This document shows positions 4,921-46,739 of a DNA stretch of 49,333 bases, one piece after another. This DNA is from an uncultured Candidatus Saccharibacteria bacterium (GTDB lineage Bacteria; Patescibacteriota; Minisyncoccia; Minisyncoccales; DG-74-3). The DNA lies in the NCBI GenBank assembly GCA_964504075.1, contig CAZDCT010000001.1, positions 1,333 through 50,665 of the forward strand, written 5' to 3'. The notes below the pieces were generated by a model. The model did no database searches and had not been told where the DNA came from. It was given only the letters and a program-made list of their open reading frames with translations. A program made the position numbers and the translations under genes. Numbering within the stretch: position 1 is the first letter of the stretch; each line of letters starts with the position of its first letter.

Positions 4921-7556
4921 ATAGCTTGTTTTTTAATAATAAAATGATGTTTGGTAATTTCGATTAAAATAAGTTCTGCTAAGCCTAAACCGATAATAAT
5001 AGACCACTCATAAGACCCAAGGGCAACGGTTTTTAATAAGGCTTGAAAGGGTGGTAAATAGATTGCAAAAACAAGCATTAATATTCCAACAAGAACAGAT
5101 ATGTTTAAAAATTTATTTGAAAAAATGTTCATCTGCCAAAGGTTTTTTCTTAAGCTTTTGCAAGCAAAAACAAATAAAAGAGAATCTACAGCTAGAGCTG
5201 CAAAGACCATAGTTCTTACGTATATAATGTCTTGAGTTTTTTGCCAGAACCACCAGAATAAACCCAAAAGTATTAAATCGCTTATAATGCCAATAATGAA
5301 AATAATTGTTTTCATTTCCTGAGTTAATAATGGCGCATTGCGTTTTCTTGGAGGTTTTAGCATAATGTCTTTCTCTTTTGGCTCAAAAGCCAAAGCAATA
5401 TCTGGTAACCCATCTTCAATCAAATTAACCCACAAAATCTGAGCAGCGCTAACTGGTAAAGGTAATCCCAGCATAATACCTCCACCAATTAAAATAGTTT
5501 CAGTAAAAGAATCAGTAAGCAGATAAGTGATAATTTTACGAATGTTGTCTAATATCTTTCTTCCTTCTTCAACAGCATTAACAATAATAGAAAAATTATC
5601 ATTTAAAAGGACTAAATCAGCAATTTCTTTAGCAACATCAGTTCCTGAACCCAGGACCATTCCAATATCTGCTTTTTTTAAAGCAGGAGCATCATTGACA
5701 CCGTCGCCTGTCATGGCCACCACGTCTCCTCTGTTTTGCCAATTTTCCACTATTCTCATTTTATGTTTTGGCTCTACTCTGGCATAAATAGAGATGTGCT
5801 TAATTATCTTTTGAAACTGTTCGTCTGAAAGACTATCCAAATCTTTTCCCTCTATGATGTTTTCTTTTTTTACAGGTAAACCAATTTCTTTAGCCACTGC
5901 CTTGGCTGTTAATTTGTGGTCTCCAGTAACAATAATTATTCTGATGCCTGCACGTTTGCATATTCTAATTGATTTTTTAACCTCTTTTCTCAAAGGATCT
6001 TTCAGGCCAATTAGACCAGTAAAAACCAAATCTTGACATGTCTTTTCTATTATTTCTTCTTTTGAAAGATTATTAATTTCTTTATAAGCAGTAGCAACAA
6101 CTCTTTGTCCTTTGCCAGTAAGCTCGTTTAATTTTTCTTTTATTTTTTCACTTCTCAATTCAGTCAATCCTTTCTTATCCTTATTAACTTCTATATACTT
6201 TGAAAGTTCTAATATTTTTTCTGGTGCCCCGCAAACAAATAAAATTCCTTGTTTTTCATTAATTTTATATAAATTAGCAAGATATTTATGAATCGGATCA
6301 AAGGGCATTTCTTGAATCTTTTCAAGCCCTTCTTGTTCTTTTTTTATATTCACACCAAACTCAATTGCACCTAAAAGCAGTGCTTTATCAGTTGGCCTTC
6401 CTCGTACAACCCAATCTTTTTTAGGTTCTTTAGGATTTTCAATAAAAGCTTCATTACACAAAGCAACTATTTTGAGAACTGATAAAGGATTATTTTTTTC
6501 ATTTTCTATTATATGGCCTCCGCTTAAAACTTGAGCCACTTTCATTTTACCTTCGGTTAAAGTACCTGTTTTATCTGTGGCAATTATAGATGTGCTTCCT
6601 AGGGTTTCAGCTGAGGCTAATTTTCTGACCAAACCTTGTTTTTTTAAGATTTTTTGCATACCTAAAGCCAAAACAACTGTTATGCAAACAGGTAATCCTT
6701 CAGGAATAGCAGCTACAGCCACTGCTATAGAGATAATAAACATTTCGTTGAAATCCCTACCCTTAATAATTCCTTCAGCAAAAATAAAAAGACAGATAAA
6801 AACAATGATGAAACCAATGACTTTTGAGAAATGGGCTACTTTTTCTTGATAGGGAGTTTGTTCTTCTTTTGTTTCTTTTACCATTTGGGTAATTTTTCCG
6901 ATTTCTGTCTGAATTCCTGTTTCTGTAATAACGATTTTTGCTTTTCCATCTTCAACCACTGTTCCCATATAAACCATATTGTCTCTATCAGCTAATGATG
7001 TTTTTTCTGAAAGAGTAGCAACAGTTTTATTGGCAGGTAGCCACTCTCCTGTTAGGGTCATTTCATTAATTTTAAGATTATATGATTCAATAATTCTACC
7101 ATCTGCTGGAACTTTATCTCCGGGATGCAAAATAACTATATCTCCTGGCGTTAATTCTTCAGAATTAATCAGTTTAAAATTTCCATCTCTTAAGACCTGG
7201 GCAAAAGACTTAGCTATTTTTTTGAGCTCTCTTAGTGCTTGTGATGCTTTGTTTTCTTGAAAAAAACCAACAAAAACATTAACAATAGCTGCTCCAAAAA
7301 TAATGATTGAGTCCCCATATTCTTTTAAAAATAAAGTAACAAACCCTGCAATTAAAAGAATATAAATCAAAGGGCTTTTGAATTGCCTTAAAAAAATTTT
7401 AATCCCAGAGAAAGTTATTTCCTCAGGAAGTGAATTCTTGCCGAATTCTTTCTGACGTATACTGATTTCTTCTTGACTCAGTCCTTTCTTGAGATTTGTT
7501 TTTAAGATTCTAATTACCTCTTTGGTTGATAAATTGTGCCAAAAAATTCCAGCCAT
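4917..7556 (-). CDS. P-type ATPase, Ca2+-transporting (P2-type)
   Basis: DKTGTLT phosphorylation motif, TGES-equivalent LTGEW, MTGDGVNDAPALKKADIG hinge, PEGLP in M4, N-terminal cation-ATPase domain. Confidence 0.9.
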   Translation of the reverse strand: MAGIFWHNLSTKEVIRILKTNLKKGLSQEEISIRQKEFGKNSLPEEITFSGIKIFLRQFKSPLIYILLIAGFVTLFLKEYGDSIIIFGAAIVNVFVGFFQENKASQALRELKKIAKSFAQVLRDGNFKLINSEELTPGDIVILHPGDKVPADGRIIESYNLKINEMTLTGEWLPANKTVATLSEKTSLADRDNMVYMGTVVEDGKAKIVITETGIQTEIGKITQMVKETKEEQTPYQEKVAHFSKVIGFIIVFICLFIFAEGIIKGRDFNEMFIISIAVAVAAIPEGLPVCITVVLALGMQKILKKQGLVRKLASAETLGSTSIIATDKTGTLTEGKMKVAQVLSGGHIIENEKNNPLSVLKIVALCNEAFIENPKEPKKDWVVRGRPTDKALLLGAIEFGVNIKKEQEGLEKIQEMPFDPIHKYLANLYKINEKQGILFVCGAPEKILELSKYIEVNKDKKGLTELRSEKIKEKLNELTGKGQRVVATAYKEINNLSKEEIIEKTCQDLVFTGLIGLKDPLRKEVKKSIRICKRAGIRIIIVTGDHKLTAKAVAKEIGLPVKKENIIEGKDLDSLSDEQFQKIIKHISIYARVEPKHKMRIVENWQNRGDVVAMTGDGVNDAPALKKADIGMVLGSGTDVAKEIADLVLLNDNFSIIVNAVEEGRKILDNIRKIITYLLTDSFTETILIGGGIMLGLPLPVSAAQILWVNLIEDGLPDIALAFEPKEKDIMLKPPRKRNAPLLTQEMKTIIFIIGIISDLILLGLFWWFWQKTQDIIYVRTMVFAALAVDSLLFVFACKSLRKNLWQMNIFSNKFLNISVLVGILMLVFAIYLPPFQALLKTVALGSYEWSIIIGLGLAELILIEITKHHFIIKKQAI

Positions 7557-30240: not shown

Positions 30241-30762
30241 TTATATTTTGGCTTTAGCCAAAACGTATATTAGACCTTTAATATTTGCTTGTAAAACATG
30301 ATTAAAGTTGGAAATTGGTGCTGAAATGCTACCAACCAATCTTGCTAAAAGCTCTTGCTTGCTTGGCAATTGTCCTAAAGTAATAACTGCTTCAGCATTC
30401 AGAAACTCTTGTTTTTGACTATCAATAAATCCTCCTAAAATCTTTAAATTATCGTTTTGTTTAGAAAAATTATATATTGTTTTTATTGGAGCTAACTCAT
30501 CTTCAAAACCAAAGACTAAGGCTATTTCTCCATTCATTTCTTCAGGATTGGCTTCAATTTTATTTTCTTGAAGAGCTTTTTTTATTAAAGTTTTTTTACT
30601 AACAAGAAATTGAGAATTTTTTTCTTTTAATTCATTTCTTAATCTAAATAAATCTTTAACTTTTAAGCCAGTGAAATCAACAAAAATCATTGCTTTTTGC
30701 TCAGCAATTTTTTCTTTTAATTCTTGTAAGATTTTATTCTTTTGTTCTTTTGTTTTAGCCAT
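30241..30762 (-). CDS. rplJ: 50S ribosomal protein L10
   Basis: [19 protein letters not shown]....[20 protein letters not shown] is a typical L10 N-terminus. Immediately upstream of rplL. Confidence 0.9.
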
Positions 30763-30888
30763 TTAAATCAAAAACCTGTCATGTAGACAGGCAAAAAATA
30801 GATTTCTAAGTTCTTGCCTAGAGAGGTCTTATTGTATGCCCCTTTTCTACAGCAACTTTAATTTATATTATTATTAATCTTTTGTCAA
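30763..30888 (-). promoter_or_regulatory. rplJ promoter and structured leader ending in a terminator-like hairpin (L10-leader-type attenuator candidate)
   Basis: Minus strand TTGACA (30888..30883) with an A/T-rich -10 (TATAAA/TAAATT), then a ~95-nt leader. CCUGUC-UACAU-GACAGG plus UUUUUGAUUU ends 7 nt before the ATG. Confidence 0.5.
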
Positions 30889-36701: not shown

Positions 36702-36724
36702 AATTATTTCAAATATTAATTTTG

Positions 36725-36797
36725 AGCCGAGAACGAGACTTGAACTCGTGACCTTTCCCTTACCATGGGAATGCTCTACCAACTGAGCTATCTCGGC
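36725..36797 (-). tRNA. tRNA-Thr (anticodon GGU)
   Basis: Reverse complement is GCCGAGAUAGCUCAGUUGGUAGAGCA-UUCCC-AUGGUAA-GGGAA-AGGUC-ACGAG-UUCAAGU-CUCGU-UCUCGGC-U. Confidence 0.85.
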
Positions 36798-41571: not shown

Positions 41572-44500
41572 ATGAAATTTACCCACCTTCATGTTCATAG
41601 TCATTATTCTTTACTTGATGGTTTATCCAAAATCGATGAACTTCTAGATTATGTCAAGGAGTTAGGCATGGATTCAGTAGCAGTCACAGATCATGGAAAT
41701 ATTTACGGAGCAGTAGAATTCTATAAAAAAGCTAAGGCAAAAGGAATTAAACCAATAATTGGATGTGAGATTTATTTGTCTTACGAAAAGATGTCTCAAA
41801 AGAGACCAAATATTGATGACAAGAGATTCCACCTAATTTTATTAGTTAAAAACGAACAAGGTTATAAAAATTTAGTAAAGCTAATAACCAAAGCCCATTT
41901 AGAGGGCTTTTATTATAGGCCAAGGGTTGATGAAGAATTATTGGCTCAACATTCAGAAGGCTTAATTGCTTGCTCAGCCTGTCTTCAAGGTAAGATTCCT
42001 CAATTAATTCTGGCCAAGAAAATAGAAGAAGCAGAAAAATTGGCTTTAAAATATCAACAAATATTTGGCAAAGGTAATTTTTACCTAGAACTTCAAAATC
42101 ATCCCAACATTAAAGAACAAGGAGTTGTCAATCAAGAATTAATTAAAATCTCTAAAAAATTAAATATTCCCTTGATAGCTACTAATGATAGTCATTACTT
42201 AAAACCAGAAGATGCTGAAGCTCAAGATATTTTAATGCTTATTAATACTGGAGGCGATCTTAATGATCGTGACAGATTAACTCTTAAGGCAGATGATTTT
42301 TCTTTGAAGTCTCCTCAAAAAATGATTAAAGATTTCAAACATGTACCTCAGGCAATTGAAAATACTCAAAAAATTGTTGAGCAATGTAATTTTGAATTTA
42401 TTTTAGGCGAAACAAAGCTTCCCAAATTTCAAGTCCCTAACGGAAAAACACCAGACGACTATTTAAAAGAATTATGCTTAGTAGGTATTAAAAAGAGATA
42501 TCAGATTATTAAACAAAAAGAACCAATGAAAAGGTTAGAGTACGAACTTTCAATAATCAAAAAAATGGGTTTTGCTTCCTATTTCTTAATTGTCCAAGAT
42601 TTTGTTAATTGGGCAAAAGAAAATAGAATTGTTGTTGGACCTGGGCGAGGAAGTGTAGCCGGTTCAATCACCTCTTATGCCCTAAACATCACTACTGTTG
42701 ATCCTTTAAAATACAACCTTCTTTTTGAAAGATTTTTAAATCCTTCCCGCATTTCAATGCCTGATATTGATTTAGATTTTACCGATAGAAGAAGAGATGA
42801 GGTTATTGATTATGTAAGTCAAAAATATGGAAAAGATAGAGTGGCTCAAATTATCACCTTTGGAACAATGGCTGCTCGAGCTGCCATCAGAGACGTAGGA
42901 AGAGCTTTAGGATACCCTTATGGATATTGTGACAGAATTGCTAAATTGATTCCCTTTGGTTTTAAATTAGATCATACTCTTAAAAAAATAGTTGAGTTTC
43001 GTCAGATCTATGAGACTGAAGAACAAGCAAAAAGACTCATTGATTTTGCCAGAAAATTAGAAGGAACAGTTCGCCACGTATCAACTCATGCCTGCGGTAT
43101 TGTTATTTCAGCTGAACCTTTAGACAACATTGTTCCTCTTCAACATCCAACCCAAGATGATACATCTATTGTTACTCAATATGAAATGCATGCTATTGAG
43201 GATCTTGGTCTTTTAAAAATGGATTTCTTGGGATTAAAAAATCTAACTATTATTGAGGATACCTTAGCCAGAATATATGCAATTCGAAAAAAAAGCATTG
43301 ATATTGAAAAGCTTGCTCCAGGAGATAGAAAAACATACCAGTTATTGCAAAAAGCTGAGACAATAGGTGTTTTTCAATTGGAAGGCGAAGGAATTAGGAG
43401 GTATTTAAAACAGCTAAAACCAACAGAATTTGAAGACATTATTGCTATGATTGCCCTCTATCGACCAGGACCAATGTCTCTTATTCCTGAGTATATTCAA
43501 AGAAAAGAAGGGAAAAGAAAAATTGAATATATTCATCCCAGCCTAGAAACCATTCTAAAACCAACTTATGGAATAATGATTTTTCAAGAACAACTTATGC
43601 AAATTGCTCAAGAATTGGCTGGTTTTTCCCTTGCTGAAGCTGATATATTAAGAAAAGCAGTTGGTAAAAAAATAGAAAGTTTACTCGTAGCCCAAAAAGA
43701 AAAATTTATTGATGGTGCAATAAAAAATGGGGTTAAAAGAGAAATTGCTTCTAAGGTTTGGGATTGGATTTTACCTTTTGCTCGTTATGGTTTCAACAAA
43801 AGCCATAGTGCTTGTTATGCAACCATTGCTTATCAAACAGCTTATTTAAAAACACACTATCCAGTAGAGTTTATGTCAGCTCTTCTTACTTCTGAAAAAT
43901 CAGATACTGAAAGGATTGGTTTTCTAATTGATGAATGTAAAAAAATGAAGATTGAAGTATTAGCTCCAGACATAAATGAAAGTTTTAGAAACTTTTCAGT
44001 TGTTCCCAAAACTAATAAAATAAGATTTGGTTTGTTTGCGATTAAAAATGTTGGCGAAAATATTGTTAATTCAATTATTTCTGAAAGAAAGGCTGATGGG
44101 CCATATAAATCAATAACAGATTTTATTTCCAGAGTTGACCCTCAGGTTATTAATAAGAAATCTTTAGAAAGCCTAATTAAGGCTGGGGTTTTTGATAAAT
44201 TCGCAGAAAGAAATCAACTTTTACATAATATTGAAAGATTATTAAGTTATGCTCGAGAAAATAAAAATCAGAAAATTTCAGGACAAAAAATTCTTTTTTC
44301 TAAAAAAACTTTCAACTCAGACTTTTATCTTGAACCCGCTCCTCCAGCCAAAAAAAGTGAAAAATTAAATTGGGAAAAAGAATTGTTAGGACTTTTTGTA
44401 ACAAGTCATCCACTAGATGACTTCCGAGCTATTTTAGCAAAAAATGCAGTTAGAATTTCTGAATTGACTCCATCTCTTAATTATAATCAAGTTAGAATAG

Positions 44501-44736
44501 GAGGAGTTATTTCTAAAATCAAAAAAATTATCACTAAAAATGGAAAGCCAATGCTTTTTGTTAAATTAGAAGATTTAACAGATAAAATTGAGGTTGTTGT
44601 TTTCCCAAAAGTTATGGAACAAAATCCAGCTGCTTTCCGGGAAAATAAGGTTGTTTTAATTCAGGGCAAATTAGATGATAGGGGTGGAGAGAAAAAACTA
44701 ATCTGTAACAATATTGAAGAAATTACAGAGGCTTGA
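41572..44736 (+). CDS. dnaE: DNA polymerase III alpha subunit
   Basis: PHP domain (FTHLHVHSHYSLLDG...TDHGN), polymerase core (MPDIDLDF, GLLKMDFLGL, RPGPM, FNKSHSACYA), HhH and OB C-terminus. Confidence 0.95.
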   Translation: MKFTHLHVHSHYSLLDGLSKIDELLDYVKELGMDSVAVTDHGNIYGAVEFYKKAKAKGIKPIIGCEIYLSYEKMSQKRPNIDDKRFHLILLVKNEQGYKNLVKLITKAHLEGFYYRPRVDEELLAQHSEGLIACSACLQGKIPQLILAKKIEEAEKLALKYQQIFGKGNFYLELQNHPNIKEQGVVNQELIKISKKLNIPLIATNDSHYLKPEDAEAQDILMLINTGGDLNDRDRLTLKADDFSLKSPQKMIKDFKHVPQAIENTQKIVEQCNFEFILGETKLPKFQVPNGKTPDDYLKELCLVGIKKRYQIIKQKEPMKRLEYELSIIKKMGFASYFLIVQDFVNWAKENRIVVGPGRGSVAGSITSYALNITTVDPLKYNLLFERFLNPSRISMPDIDLDFTDRRRDEVIDYVSQKYGKDRVAQIITFGTMAARAAIRDVGRALGYPYGYCDRIAKLIPFGFKLDHTLKKIVEFRQIYETEEQAKRLIDFARKLEGTVRHVSTHACGIVISAEPLDNIVPLQHPTQDDTSIVTQYEMHAIEDLGLLKMDFLGLKNLTIIEDTLARIYAIRKKSIDIEKLAPGDRKTYQLLQKAETIGVFQLEGEGIRRYLKQLKPTEFEDIIAMIALYRPGPMSLIPEYIQRKEGKRKIEYIHPSLETILKPTYGIMIFQEQLMQIAQELAGFSLAEADILRKAVGKKIESLLVAQKEKFIDGAIKNGVKREIASKVWDWILPFARYGFNKSHSACYATIAYQTAYLKTHYPVEFMSALLTSEKSDTERIGFLIDECKKMKIEVLAPDINESFRNFSVVPKTNKIRFGLFAIKNVGENIVNSIISERKADGPYKSITDFISRVDPQVINKKSLESLIKAGVFDKFAERNQLLHNIERLLSYARENKNQKISGQKILFSKKTFNSDFYLEPAPPAKKSEKLNWEKELLGLFVTSHPLDDFRAILAKNAVRISELTPSLNYNQVRIGGVISKIKKIITKNGKPMLFVKLEDLTDKIEVVVFPKVMEQNPAAFRENKVVLIQGKLDDRGGEKKLICNNIEEITEA

Positions 44737-44760
44737 CAAACATTTCTAATATCTTAAAAT
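44733..44760 (+). promoter_or_regulatory. Promoter overlapping the dnaE stop codon
   Basis: TTGACA (44733-44738, contains the dnaE TGA), 16 nt, TAAAAT (44755-44760). Confidence 0.6.
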
Positions 44761-44768
44761 AAAAACAG

Positions 44769-44822
44769 ATGTTAATTTGTTTAAAAAAATTCAATATAAC
44801 AACCACAACAACTTCTTTTTAG
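44769..44822 (+). CDS. Putative Thr-rich leader peptide MLICLKKFNITTTTTSF (thrS attenuator)
   Basis: ATG lies 8 nt after the -10. Five consecutive Thr codons ACA ACC ACA ACA ACT (44799-44813). The TAG overlaps the antiterminator arm. Confidence 0.6.
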   Translation: MLICLKKFNITTTTTSF

Positions 44823-44858
44823 GTCAACTGAGGATATTTTTTAATTTTCAGCTGGCCT
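44821..44858 (+). promoter_or_regulatory. Antiterminator hairpin of thrS leader
   Basis: AGGUCAACUGA (44821-31) pairs with UCAGCUGGCCU (44848-58) at 10 of 11 positions (one G-U, one A-C mismatch). Shares GGCCU with the terminator 5' arm. Confidence 0.55.
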
Positions 44859-44880
44859 CTTCAAAAAGAGGTTTTTGTTT
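44856..44880 (+). terminator. Intrinsic terminator inside the thrS leader
   Basis: CCUCUU-CAAA-AAGAGG followed by UUUUUGUUU. Confidence 0.65.
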
Positions 44881-44891
44881 ATAAGTCGAAG

Positions 44892-44958
44892 GATATTATT
44901 CACAGAGCACTGTTTTCGATAGAATACTGTACTCAAAGAGCTAAAGCTCTTTTCGACA
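44892..44958 (+). repeat. Copy B of the ~55-nt intergenic element (with a 14-17-nt insertion)
   Basis: GATATTATT..CAGAGCACTG..[insert]..TACTCAAAGAGCTAAAGCTCTTTTCGACA is collinear with the minus-strand sense of 2571..2626. Confidence 0.55.
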
Positions 44959-44975
44959 GAGTCTGGTGACTCTGT
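44956..44975 (+). other. Hairpin with GGU-containing loop about 35 nt upstream of thrS ATG
   Basis: ACAGAGUC-UGGU-GACUCUGU. If the closing C-G pair opens, the 7-nt loop reads CUGGUGA. Confidence 0.4.
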
Positions 44976-45008
44976 AATTAAAAATTAAAAAACTAAATAA
45001 CTAAAAAT

Positions 45009-46739
45009 ATGGCTAAAATAGAAACGATTAGACATTCGCTGTCTCATATTATGGCAGCAGCAGTTCAAGAGCTTTTTCCAAAAGTAAAATTTGGAATTGG
45101 ACCAGCGATTGAAAATGGTTTTTACTATGATTTTGAGTTTCCTAAAAATCTGAGTCCGAACGATCTACCTAAAATTGAAAAGAAAATGAAAGAACTTATT
45201 AAAAGAAATGTTCCTTTTAAAAAGCTAAGTGTTTCTAAAAAAGAAGCTCAAAAAATCTTTAAAGGACAACCCTATAAACTGGATTTAATTAAAGAATTAA
45301 AAAGCAGTGAAGTCAATCTTTATCAAAGTGGAGAGTTTACAGATTTGTGCAAAGGTCCTCATGTCAGGTCAAGCAAAGAACTTTCTCTTCATGCTTTTAA
45401 GTTAACCAAAATTGCTGGAGCTTATTGGAAAGGAAGCGAAAAAAACCCAATGCTTCAAAGGATTTATGCTCTTGCTTTTAATTCTAAGAAAGAATTGGAT
45501 GATTTTCTTAAACAAGAAGTAGAAGCAGAAAAAAGAGACCATCGTAAATTAGGCAAAAAATTAGAACTTTTTATGATTGATGAAGAATTTGGGCAAGGTT
45601 TACCTTTATGGCTTCCCAAAGGAGCAATTATCAGAAAAATTATTATGGATTTTGCTCTAAATACCTACTTAAACAGAGGCTATCAATTGGTTGCCACTCC
45701 CCATATTGCAAACCTGAAATTATGGAAAAGATCTGGTCATTGGGATTTTTATCGAGAAAGCATGTATTCTCCAATAAAAGTAGAAAAAGAGTTTTACATG
45801 ATTAAACCAATGAATTGCCCTGGTCATGTTAAAATTTATGATTCAAAAATAAGGTCATATAAGAATTTACCTTTAAGATTTACCGAGATGGGAACTGTTT
45901 ATAGGTATGAAAGATCAGGAACCCTGCATGGCTTGGTAAGAGTAAGAGGCTTTACTCAAGATGATGCTCACATTTTCTGCACTCCAGAACAATTACACTC
46001 AGAGCTCTTAGAAATGATTGATTTAACCTTATATATTTTGAGAAGTTTTGGTTTCAAAAAGTTTGAAATTTCTCTTTCTGTTCGTGATATAAAAAAGAAA
46101 AAAAAGTATTTGGGAGATGATAAGGTTTGGAAATTGGCTGAAAAAGCCTTAGAAAACGCTTTAAAAACCAAAAAGCTTTCTTATACTCGCTATCTAGGAG
46201 AGGCGGTCTTTTATGGACCTAAGATTGATTTTTTGGTTTCAGACGCTATTGGTAGAAAATGGCAATTAACAACTATTCAAGTAGATTTTAATTTTCCAGA
46301 AAAATTTGATCTCAATTATATTGATAAAAAGGGGAAGAAGAAAAGACCAATTATGCTTCATCGAGCACTGTTGGGCTCTTTAGAAAGATTTATTGGGGTG
46401 CTGATTGAACATTATGAAGGTGCTTTTCCTTTGTGGTTATCGCCCATCCAATTCATGATTATTCCAGTGGGTTCAAAACATAGAAACTTTGCAAAAAAAG
46501 TTGCCGAAAGTTTAAAGGAGCAAAGCTTCAGAGCAATAGTAAAAGATGAAACCGAAACTGTTTCAAAAAAGATAAGAGAGGGAGAAATTCAAAAAATCCC
46601 CTATCTCTTGGTTGTTGGTGATAAAGAAATGAAAAGTCAATCAGTTAGGGTAAGAAAAAGAGGAAAAGGTGATATCGGAATAATGAAATTGTCTAAATTC
46701 TTAGAAAAAGTTAAAATAGAACAAGAGTCGAAAAAATAA
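45009..46739 (+). CDS. thrS: Threonyl-tRNA synthetase (short form lacking N-terminal TGS domain)
   Basis: Starts in the editing/SAD domain (IRHSLSHIMA...DLCKGPHV). Class II motifs (FYMIKPMNCPGH, YRYERSG, GFTQDDAHIF, FYGPKID) and a C-terminal anticodon-binding domain. Confidence 0.95.
   Translation: MAKIETIRHSLSHIMAAAVQELFPKVKFGIGPAIENGFYYDFEFPKNLSPNDLPKIEKKMKELIKRNVPFKKLSVSKKEAQKIFKGQPYKLDLIKELKSSEVNLYQSGEFTDLCKGPHVRSSKELSLHAFKLTKIAGAYWKGSEKNPMLQRIYALAFNSKKELDDFLKQEVEAEKRDHRKLGKKLELFMIDEEFGQGLPLWLPKGAIIRKIIMDFALNTYLNRGYQLVATPHIANLKLWKRSGHWDFYRESMYSPIKVEKEFYMIKPMNCPGHVKIYDSKIRSYKNLPLRFTEMGTVYRYERSGTLHGLVRVRGFTQDDAHIFCTPEQLHSELLEMIDLTLYILRSFGFKKFEISLSVRDIKKKKKYLGDDKVWKLAEKALENALKTKKLSYTRYLGEAVFYGPKIDFLVSDAIGRKWQLTTIQVDFNFPEKFDLNYIDKKGKKKRPIMLHRALLGSLERFIGVLIEHYEGAFPLWLSPIQFMIIPVGSKHRNFAKKVAESLKEQSFRAIVKDETETVSKKIREGEIQKIPYLLVVGDKEMKSQSVRVRKRGKGDIGIMKLSKFLEKVKIEQESKK

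Follow-up and report, generated by a model that had tools for sequence, protein, structure and literature searches.

The classical leader-peptide attenuators are those of Escherichia coli, namely trpL, hisL, thrL-thrABC, pheL, ilvL and leuL, and in the same species a leader peptide with Phe codons, pheM, attenuates the phenylalanyl-tRNA synthetase operon pheST, as has been proven experimentally. The textbook controls of thrS, the gene for threonyl-tRNA synthetase (ThrRS), are the T-box of the Firmicutes, which binds uncharged tRNA, and the translational operator of E. coli, which binds ThrRS. Here, a short leader lying between dnaE and thrS is described in a stretch of 49,333 nucleotides (nt) from an uncultured Candidatus Saccharibacteria bacterium (contig CAZDCT010000001.1); this whole stretch is called the window throughout. 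The leader is read as a ribosome-mediated (leader-peptide) transcription attenuator, through which thrS would be transcribed according to how much charged tRNA-Thr is available, a prediction to which a probability of roughly 0.8 is assigned, and thrS is most likely turned up when charged Thr-tRNA is scarce. The feature is real and conserved, and it is very probably functional. A Thr-codon attenuator of thrS had been proposed in the initial annotation of the window, and the proposal is supported by conservation, by covariation in the antiterminator and by folding of the leader with a ribosome footprint masked.

Attenuation of synthetase genes has some precedent. The E. coli pheST case is cited in PMC1262725, where classical attenuators are also predicted for the trpS and leuS genes of Streptomyces. 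In Streptomyces lividans TK24, attenuators were predicted from RNA-seq for alaS, thrS, trpS and leuS (PMC8079986); the 'thrL' that precedes thrS in that species is a leaderless ORF with two Thr codons, for which the authors report no clear U-rich terminator (PMC8079986). The view taken at the outset, that leader-peptide control of thrS was undescribed, was thus slightly too strong, as S. lividans thrL-thrS had been proposed earlier. A literature search returned no well-supported thrS leader-peptide attenuator, a 2010 survey of attenuation in aminoacyl-tRNA operons lying outside its coverage, and no report of attenuators in bacteria of the Candidate Phyla Radiation (CPR).

The leader is compact and its parts overlap closely (Table 1). 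Re-reading of 44500-45200 reproduced every coordinate that the initial annotation had given for the promoter, the open reading frame (ORF), the Thr run, the hairpins and the terminator. The predicted promoter, P1, scored 11/12 in a promoter scan. Downstream of it, four segments can be numbered as in other attenuators: region 1 is the end of the leader ORF, regions 2 and 3 form the antiterminator, and regions 3 and 4 form the terminator. Of the 11 positions in the antiterminator core AGGUCAACUGA (44821-31), 10 can pair with UCAGCUGGCCU (44848-58), one of them as G-U, and the helix runs four pairs beyond this core. The terminator hairpin CCUCUU-CAAA-AAGAGG (44856-71), followed by UUUUUGUUU, is one of two terminator-like sites that a terminator scan found in 1.5 kb. 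Helices 2:3 and 3:4 are mutually exclusive, as both use 44854/56-58. A composite pattern of Thr run plus terminator occurs once in the window and in none of 100 shuffles, the fold of 44765-44885 has a z-score of -4.8 relative to shuffled sequences, and the leader is the sole intergenic short ORF in the window with at least four identical residues in a row.

Two mutually exclusive hairpins had been recognised originally; both exist and they do overlap, but the RNA has three conformers, and the default one, in which helices 1:4 and 2:3 are nested, had been overlooked. It is the minimum free energy (MFE) fold, a single long hairpin of -30.9 kcal/mol in which the antiterminator stem 2:3 is enclosed by a helix of regions 1 and 4. 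In the window the antiterminator alone amounts to -14.9 kcal/mol and the terminator to -8.1 kcal/mol.

Table 1. Features of the dnaE-thrS interval, numbered from the first nucleotide of the window.
Feature	Position	Strand	Remarks
dnaE (DNA polymerase III alpha)	41572..44736	+	1054-aa ORF; Pfam PHP, DNA_pol3_alpha, finger, HHH_6 and OB domains
Predicted promoter P1, -35 box TTGACA	44733..44738	+	dnaE stop TGA (44734-36) lies inside the box
Predicted promoter P1, -10 box TAAAAT	44755..44760	+	16-nt spacer from the -35 box; 8 nt before the leader ATG
Leader ORF MLICLKKFNITTTTTSF	44769..44822	+	ATG at 44769, 17 codons, TAG at 44820-22
Sensor, five consecutive Thr codons (ACA ACC ACA ACA ACT)	44799..44813	+	Read in the sequence
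Region 1 AACUUCUUUUU, end of the leader ORF	44810..44820	+	Pairs with region 4 in untranslated RNA (MFE fold, RNAalifold consensus)
Region 2, antiterminator 5' arm	44821..44835	+	Begins inside the stop codon
Region 3	44844..44861	+	44844-58, antiterminator 3' arm; 44854/56-61, terminator 5' arm
Region 4 AAAAAGAGGUU, terminator 3' arm	44863..44873	+	Partner is region 3 or region 1
U-tract of the intrinsic terminator UUUUUGUUU	44872..44880	+	Present in all 33 aligned leaders
Spacer between terminator and thrS	44881..45008	+	Holds a hairpin-rich, lineage-specific insertion of ~96 nt (44881-44975)
thrS (ThrRS, 576 aa)	45009..46739	+	Pfam tRNA-synt_2b, HGTP_anticodon and tRNA_SAD

The same arrangement recurs in related genomes. 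Eighty loci were picked purely on ThrRS similarity, blind to any leader pattern, and the closest ThrRS-encoding genomes proved to be assemblies of Candidatus Nealsonbacteria and other Parcubacteria (CPR). The host of the window is taken as one of these ultra-small CPR bacteria (Nealsonbacteria). A module of promoter, ORF of 15-24 codons that include 3-9 consecutive Thr codons, antiterminator, and terminator with U-tract lies upstream of thrS in 4/80 of these genomes. The four pattern-independent leaders are MSKNLSNRITTTTTTS in L006 (6 Thr codons), MYIKNIITTTTTTTTSS in L023 (8), MLISYRKIKKRTSVITTTKNPF in L036 (3) and MLSCLRKFNITTTTTSF in L001 (5), and a covariance model of the leader, R1, found no members besides these among the 80 loci. 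Metagenome sequences were scanned, without regard to genes, for four ACN codons and TCTT separated by 30-60 nt from a downstream CTCTT-loop-AAGAG. This returned 71 matches, 30 of which are directly upstream of thrS as identified by tblastn, mostly just downstream of dnaE; as the pattern says nothing of thrS, the association with this gene is not a matter of chance. The other 41 matches are not at thrS; the majority of them fall within long ORFs or G+C-rich DNA and were set aside as chance matches. The ThrRS proteins of leader-bearing relatives are 49-89% identical to that of the window. Conservation of the ORF and its Thr run in relatives had been named in advance as a test of the proposal, and the ORF, the Thr run, both stems and the place upstream of thrS are kept in about 35 loci.

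In L084, L086, L103 and L108 the leader is still upstream of thrS although other DNA separates it from dnaE. In L092 it precedes a homoserine kinase gene, thrB (357 bits with NCBIfam NF002288, whose cutoff is 194; about 5878-6807 in reverse-complement orientation), which is followed by thrS; there a thrB-thrS operon appears to be under the control of the leader, which is unusual in the CPR, and the presence of thrB ties the leader to threonine a second time. Between leader and thrS in L001, whose genome is the closest relative (85% ThrRS identity), stands a 127-aa hydrophobic ORF without an NCBIfam match (2590-2973).

Comparison of 33 distinct leaders defines what is held constant in the ORF. 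An in-frame, ATG-initiated ORF is present in the Thr frame of all 33, as against 1 of 66 for the other two frames. The predicted peptides are 15-24 aa long, with runs of 3-9 Thr codons (4-9 in the metagenome members, most of which exceed the four that the pattern requires). Their N-terminal halves are unrelated (MRKISSKL, MDDIRKNL, MIKFTI, MKAPTLTNAI etc.), while the Thr run is almost always followed by Ser-Phe/Leu (UCU UUU) and a stop codon at or inside the antiterminator 5' arm. Among the Thr codons other than the last, synonymous variation is free, the third base being A in 61, U in 48, C in 45 and G in 2 (n=156). In the last Thr codon it is C in 27 leaders and U in 6, with no A at all (Fisher p = 7e-7), a restriction predicted by the pairing of this base with a G of region 4.

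Comparative support for the RNA structure comes chiefly from helix 2:3. The 33 leaders were aligned by MAFFT (alignment A1), and the RNAalifold consensus consists of helix 1:4 (7 pairs) and helix 2:3 (13 pairs). Changes on both sides are seen in 11/13 pairs of helix 2:3, with 90.8% of cells paired; none of 500 column shuffles matched the observed values on any measure, and when the partner strand was slid by 1-3 columns pairing fell to 38-62%. The loop of this helix is not conserved. The terminator 3:4 is 96% paired and invariant in the 33 sequences, and every member has a G+C-containing stem followed directly by a U-tract of at least 5 bases; the stem was set by the search pattern and therefore carries no covariation information. 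Most of helix 1:4 was likewise set by the pattern, and independent support for it comes from the last-codon bias and from the pattern-independent L036, in which both strands differ and still pair (CCCUUUU/AAAGGGG). Region 1 is a near copy of region 3.

Ribosome positions were modelled by holding the nucleotides from -12 to +11, +14 or +16, counted from the first nucleotide of the P-site, single-stranded. In free RNA, region 4 is paired in 33/33 leaders by MFE folding, which is a terminating form. With a ribosome whose A-site holds the stop codon, the 3:4 terminator forms in 33/33. The A-site positions that free region 4 are confined to 1-4 consecutive Thr codons in the middle or late part of the run, and such positions exist in 24-27 of the 33 leaders, the number varying with footprint size. 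A codon before the Thr run never has this effect (0/33); in the window the antiterminated state is obtained with the A-site on Thr codons 2-4. This agrees with the logic first proposed for the locus, in which arrival at the stop codon leads to the terminator and a stall on Thr codons to the antiterminator. Such folding is evidence of feasibility, not of function. The locus combines every defining feature of such attenuators that can be tested on sequence: an ORF with its own start and stop, a cluster of cognate codons, a terminator, an exclusive antiterminator and, by computation and dependent on the footprint, an appropriate stall geometry.

These elements allow a model of thrS regulation to be put forward. 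Transcription would start at P1, overlapping the dnaE stop codon, so that the RNA would begin at the leader AUG or no more than ~2 nt before it, and read-through transcripts from dnaE would also pass into the element. The leader would be translated by a ribosome coupled to the transcribing polymerase. When Thr-tRNA is plentiful, the ribosome would reach the UAG (44820-22) and cover regions 1 and 2; region 3 would then pair with region 4 (CCUCUU/AAGAGG plus the U-tract), giving termination and an RNA of ~112 nt. When Thr-tRNA is scarce, a stall on the middle or late Thr codons would cover region 1 and leave region 2 free, the 2:3 antiterminator would sequester region 3, and polymerase would read through into thrS past a region 4 without a partner. 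With no ribosome, region 1 would pair with region 4 around the 2:3 stem to form a long hairpin that abuts the U-tract; as the default conformer ends at the U-tract, untranslated RNA should terminate too.

Leaderless initiation is plausibly a general habit in this genome. A TTGACA/TAnnnT promoter scoring at least 10/12 precedes 23/33 leaders, and TTGACA is found at the matching relative place in most relatives. The -10 box lies a median of 8 nt before the ATG (range 3-15, 33 leaders), which, with the start position estimated from the box, leaves a 5' untranslated region of 0 to about 3 nt; in the window the leader mRNA is predicted to be leaderless or to have a 5' leader of roughly 2 nt. The initial annotation had noted that the leader ORF has no Shine-Dalgarno (SD) motif. 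Its absence is borne out, but it is not special: SD-like motifs, all of them weak, precede only 5/48 ORFs of the window (G+C 32%), and with such motifs essentially absent an SD-less leader ORF is ordinary here. A TATAAT-like box is seen 4-8 nt before the ATG of several window genes, dnaE (41572) and the ORF that ends at 7556 among them, which suggests that leaderless mRNAs are widespread in this genome. A gene for tRNA-Thr(GGU) is located at 36724-36797 (-), 8 kb upstream, clustered with tRNA-Tyr and tRNA-Trp genes; ACC and ACU, which the GGU anticodon reads directly, make up 2/5 of the Thr codons of the window leader, the other three being ACA.

The spacer between terminator and thrS is variable. 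In the window it carries an insertion (44881-44975, +) with three stem-loops, the last of which is ACAGAGUC-UGGU-GACUCUGU (44956-44975). The close relative L094 has 15 nt in its place, and L103 has a related modular version made of 'UUUCGACAGAG...CUCUGU' units with the loop UGUC; the UGGU and UGUC loops each contain a Thr anticodon and are only 4 nt long. At the same spacer position L093, L096 and L111 have insertions of 100-190 nt bounded by the long inverted repeats CCCCACACCA...TGGTGTGGGG. The site past the terminator thus seems, from these sequences, to be a hot spot for structured insertions, and the window insertion may be an element of the repetitive extragenic palindrome or miniature inverted-repeat transposable element (REP/MITE) kind. 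The spacer 44876-45008 was also considered as a repeat or mobile element, and BLAST against the window and all loci gave no other copy in the window and short matches only; a repeat search of the same interval found local hairpins only.

Several observations weigh against the attenuator, or limit the part it would play. An extended -10-like motif, TGnTAnnnT (in most cases TGnTAAAAT), is conserved in 10 of 30 relatives, 24-28 nt before the thrS ATG and downstream of the terminator (L036, L093, L096, L098, L099, L104, L108, L132, L135 and L151). This motif is not evident in the window, where the gap between the terminator stem (44870) and thrS measures 138 nt and has a weak promoter-like site at 44899-44928. 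TGnTAnnnT is possibly a second thrS promoter, independent of the attenuator; with a promoter-like motif past the terminator, part of thrS transcription may bypass the attenuator, which may modulate only the remaining part. The element is also patchy: many relatives have a dnaE-thrS spacer of 10-40 nt without a leader, which marks it as an insertion between dnaE and thrS that is restricted to certain lineages. Because the metagenome pattern requires four Thr codons, TCTT and the terminator stem, these are conserved by construction, and the pattern-independent loci number only 5. In the footprint-masked folding, both the footprint size and equilibrium folding are assumed, and 6-9 of the 33 leaders are never antiterminated in MFE folds.

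The downstream motifs, together with the position of the hairpin just after dnaE, could be taken to mean that the hairpin and U-tract are a plain dnaE terminator, that thrS has its own downstream promoter and that the Thr-rich ORF is incidental. This account is distinctly improbable. It leaves unexplained the conserved in-frame ATG, the 3-9 Thr codons, the fixed stop, the covarying antiterminator and the conserved TTGACA/TAAAAT directly before the ORF; moreover, the leader stays with thrS in the four loci in which dnaE lies apart, and the gene-blind scan placed 30/71 matches at thrS. The hairpin probably does double as the dnaE terminator, a double duty that fits attenuation equally well. Somewhat less improbable, though still unlikely, is that the leader ORF senses Thr-tRNA as proposed and acts through another output, be it Rho-dependent termination, mRNA stability, or translational coupling and re-initiation. 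Intrinsic termination at this locus is a prediction from sequence, re-initiation has been proposed for leader ORFs in some bacteria (PMC4833913), and the distance from element to thrS is 36-240 nt, with whole genes between them in L001 and L092. By their length and variability the spacers nonetheless exclude translational coupling, all members have the G+C-containing stem and U-tract, and the competing helix overlaps exactly the terminator 5' arm.

Sensing without a translating ribosome, by direct binding of ThrRS to an operator of the E. coli type or of uncharged tRNA-Thr to a T-box, would bring the locus into line with the two textbook controls of thrS, and the GGU Thr anticodon within the loop of the 44956-44975 hairpin, like the UGUC loop of its L103 relative, invites such a comparison. 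It is very improbable nevertheless. Searches of 44400-45300 against Rfam, with matches followed to E = 10, found no T-box, Thr_leader or other leader family, and at gathering score the whole window yielded only tRNAs. The loops are of 4 nt, against the 7-nt anticodon loop (AUGGUAA) of the window tRNA-Thr; the hairpin belongs to a lineage-specific insertion that the closest relatives, L094 and L110, and most family members lack; and the loop of helix 2:3 varies among the leaders. An anticodon-mimic operator at 44956-75 was for these reasons rejected. Conservation of the frame and length of the small ORF might also point to a functional Thr-rich micropeptide whose RNA structures are only its terminator, but this is the least credible of the readings weighed here. 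All that is conserved of the peptide is the Thr run and the Ser-Phe/Leu (UCU UUU) of the RNA-pairing segment, with an unconstrained N-terminal half; the third base of the last Thr codon tracks RNA pairing and not coding; and the location of the ORF is bound to thrS and thrB. Ribosome-mediated attenuation is accordingly preferred.

A few other leader-like elements were noted. On metagenome contigs that are not of CPR origin (G+C 0.42-0.50), the scan found short ORFs with Thr runs, MRQQISNSAMTTTTSLLEEA in L081 (452-527) and MHYKLSITTTTTTTSLWKGPFVA in L105 (847-936) and L144 (1246-1335; all in oriented coordinates), each followed by a terminator. From their sequences these are probably Thr leaders of other bacteria, and no thr gene was identifiable downstream of them. 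In the window itself, a TTGACA promoter and a ~90-nt structured leader ending in a hairpin and U-run lie directly upstream of rplJ, the gene for ribosomal protein L10 (30762-30890, -). No Rfam family matches this leader at gathering score, and it may be an L10-type autoregulatory leader. A weak match of R1 at 30762-30835 (-; 27.8 bits), upstream of rplJ, is at chance level and unrelated. The sole sub-threshold Rfam match, GP20-a (20.5 bits against a cutoff of 47.2), falls in the spacer downstream of the terminator and was dismissed.

CPR/Patescibacteria have very small genomes with few recognisable regulators, and their gene regulation is almost unexplored. If the model is true, at least one CPR lineage monitors the charging of tRNA-Thr without a dedicated protein. 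The model carries with it a coupling of transcription to translation and, probably, initiation on leaderless mRNA; a functional element would mean that minimal, host-dependent bacteria possess tight transcription-translation coupling and amino-acid-specific starvation sensing, and would offer a concrete handle for testing both. The three-state design, in which region 1 duplicates region 3, would have untranslated and fully translated leaders both terminate. As a new RNA family, the leader (alignment A1, model R1) can be used in genome annotation, and the compactness of the element suits it to a cell-free system. On balance, it appears to be the first ribosome-dependent attenuator family to be recognised in the CPR, absent from Rfam and distinguished by a leaderless leader peptide, a nested three-state design and a tRNA-synthetase target.

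With the classical attenuators the thrS leader shares a promoter-proximal short ORF rich in cognate codons, antiterminator and terminator hairpins that overlap, an intrinsic terminator ahead of the structural gene, and selection of the fold by ribosome position. It differs from them in matching neither the Rfam Thr_leader nor any other leader family, in its target, a tRNA synthetase instead of a biosynthetic operon (the thrB-thrS arrangement of L092 excepted), in an mRNA predicted to be leaderless or nearly so and without an SD motif, in a nested default terminator (1:4 around 2:3) where the textbook form is 1:2 plus 3:4, and in its CPR/Patescibacteria host. Like pheM-pheST, it would attenuate a synthetase gene through codons for the enzyme's own amino acid, although amino acid, gene, phylum and sequence all differ and the thrS leader is a prediction. 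The T-box and the E. coli operator have in common with it the regulated gene and the signal, be it tRNA-Thr charging or ThrRS level, whereas the sensor proposed here is the translating ribosome. Closest in kind is the Streptomyces thrL, likewise a short leaderless ORF with Thr codons upstream of thrS and a proposed attenuator; that was an RNA-seq call in a single genome, whereas the family described here has runs of 3-9 Thr codons, a canonical terminator, covariation and about 35 loci. Leader-peptide control of synthetase genes would thereby be widened beyond E. coli pheST and the predicted Streptomyces cases. The mechanism proposed is a classical one, of the trp/his/thr/pheST type, and it is the gene and the bacterial group that are new for it.

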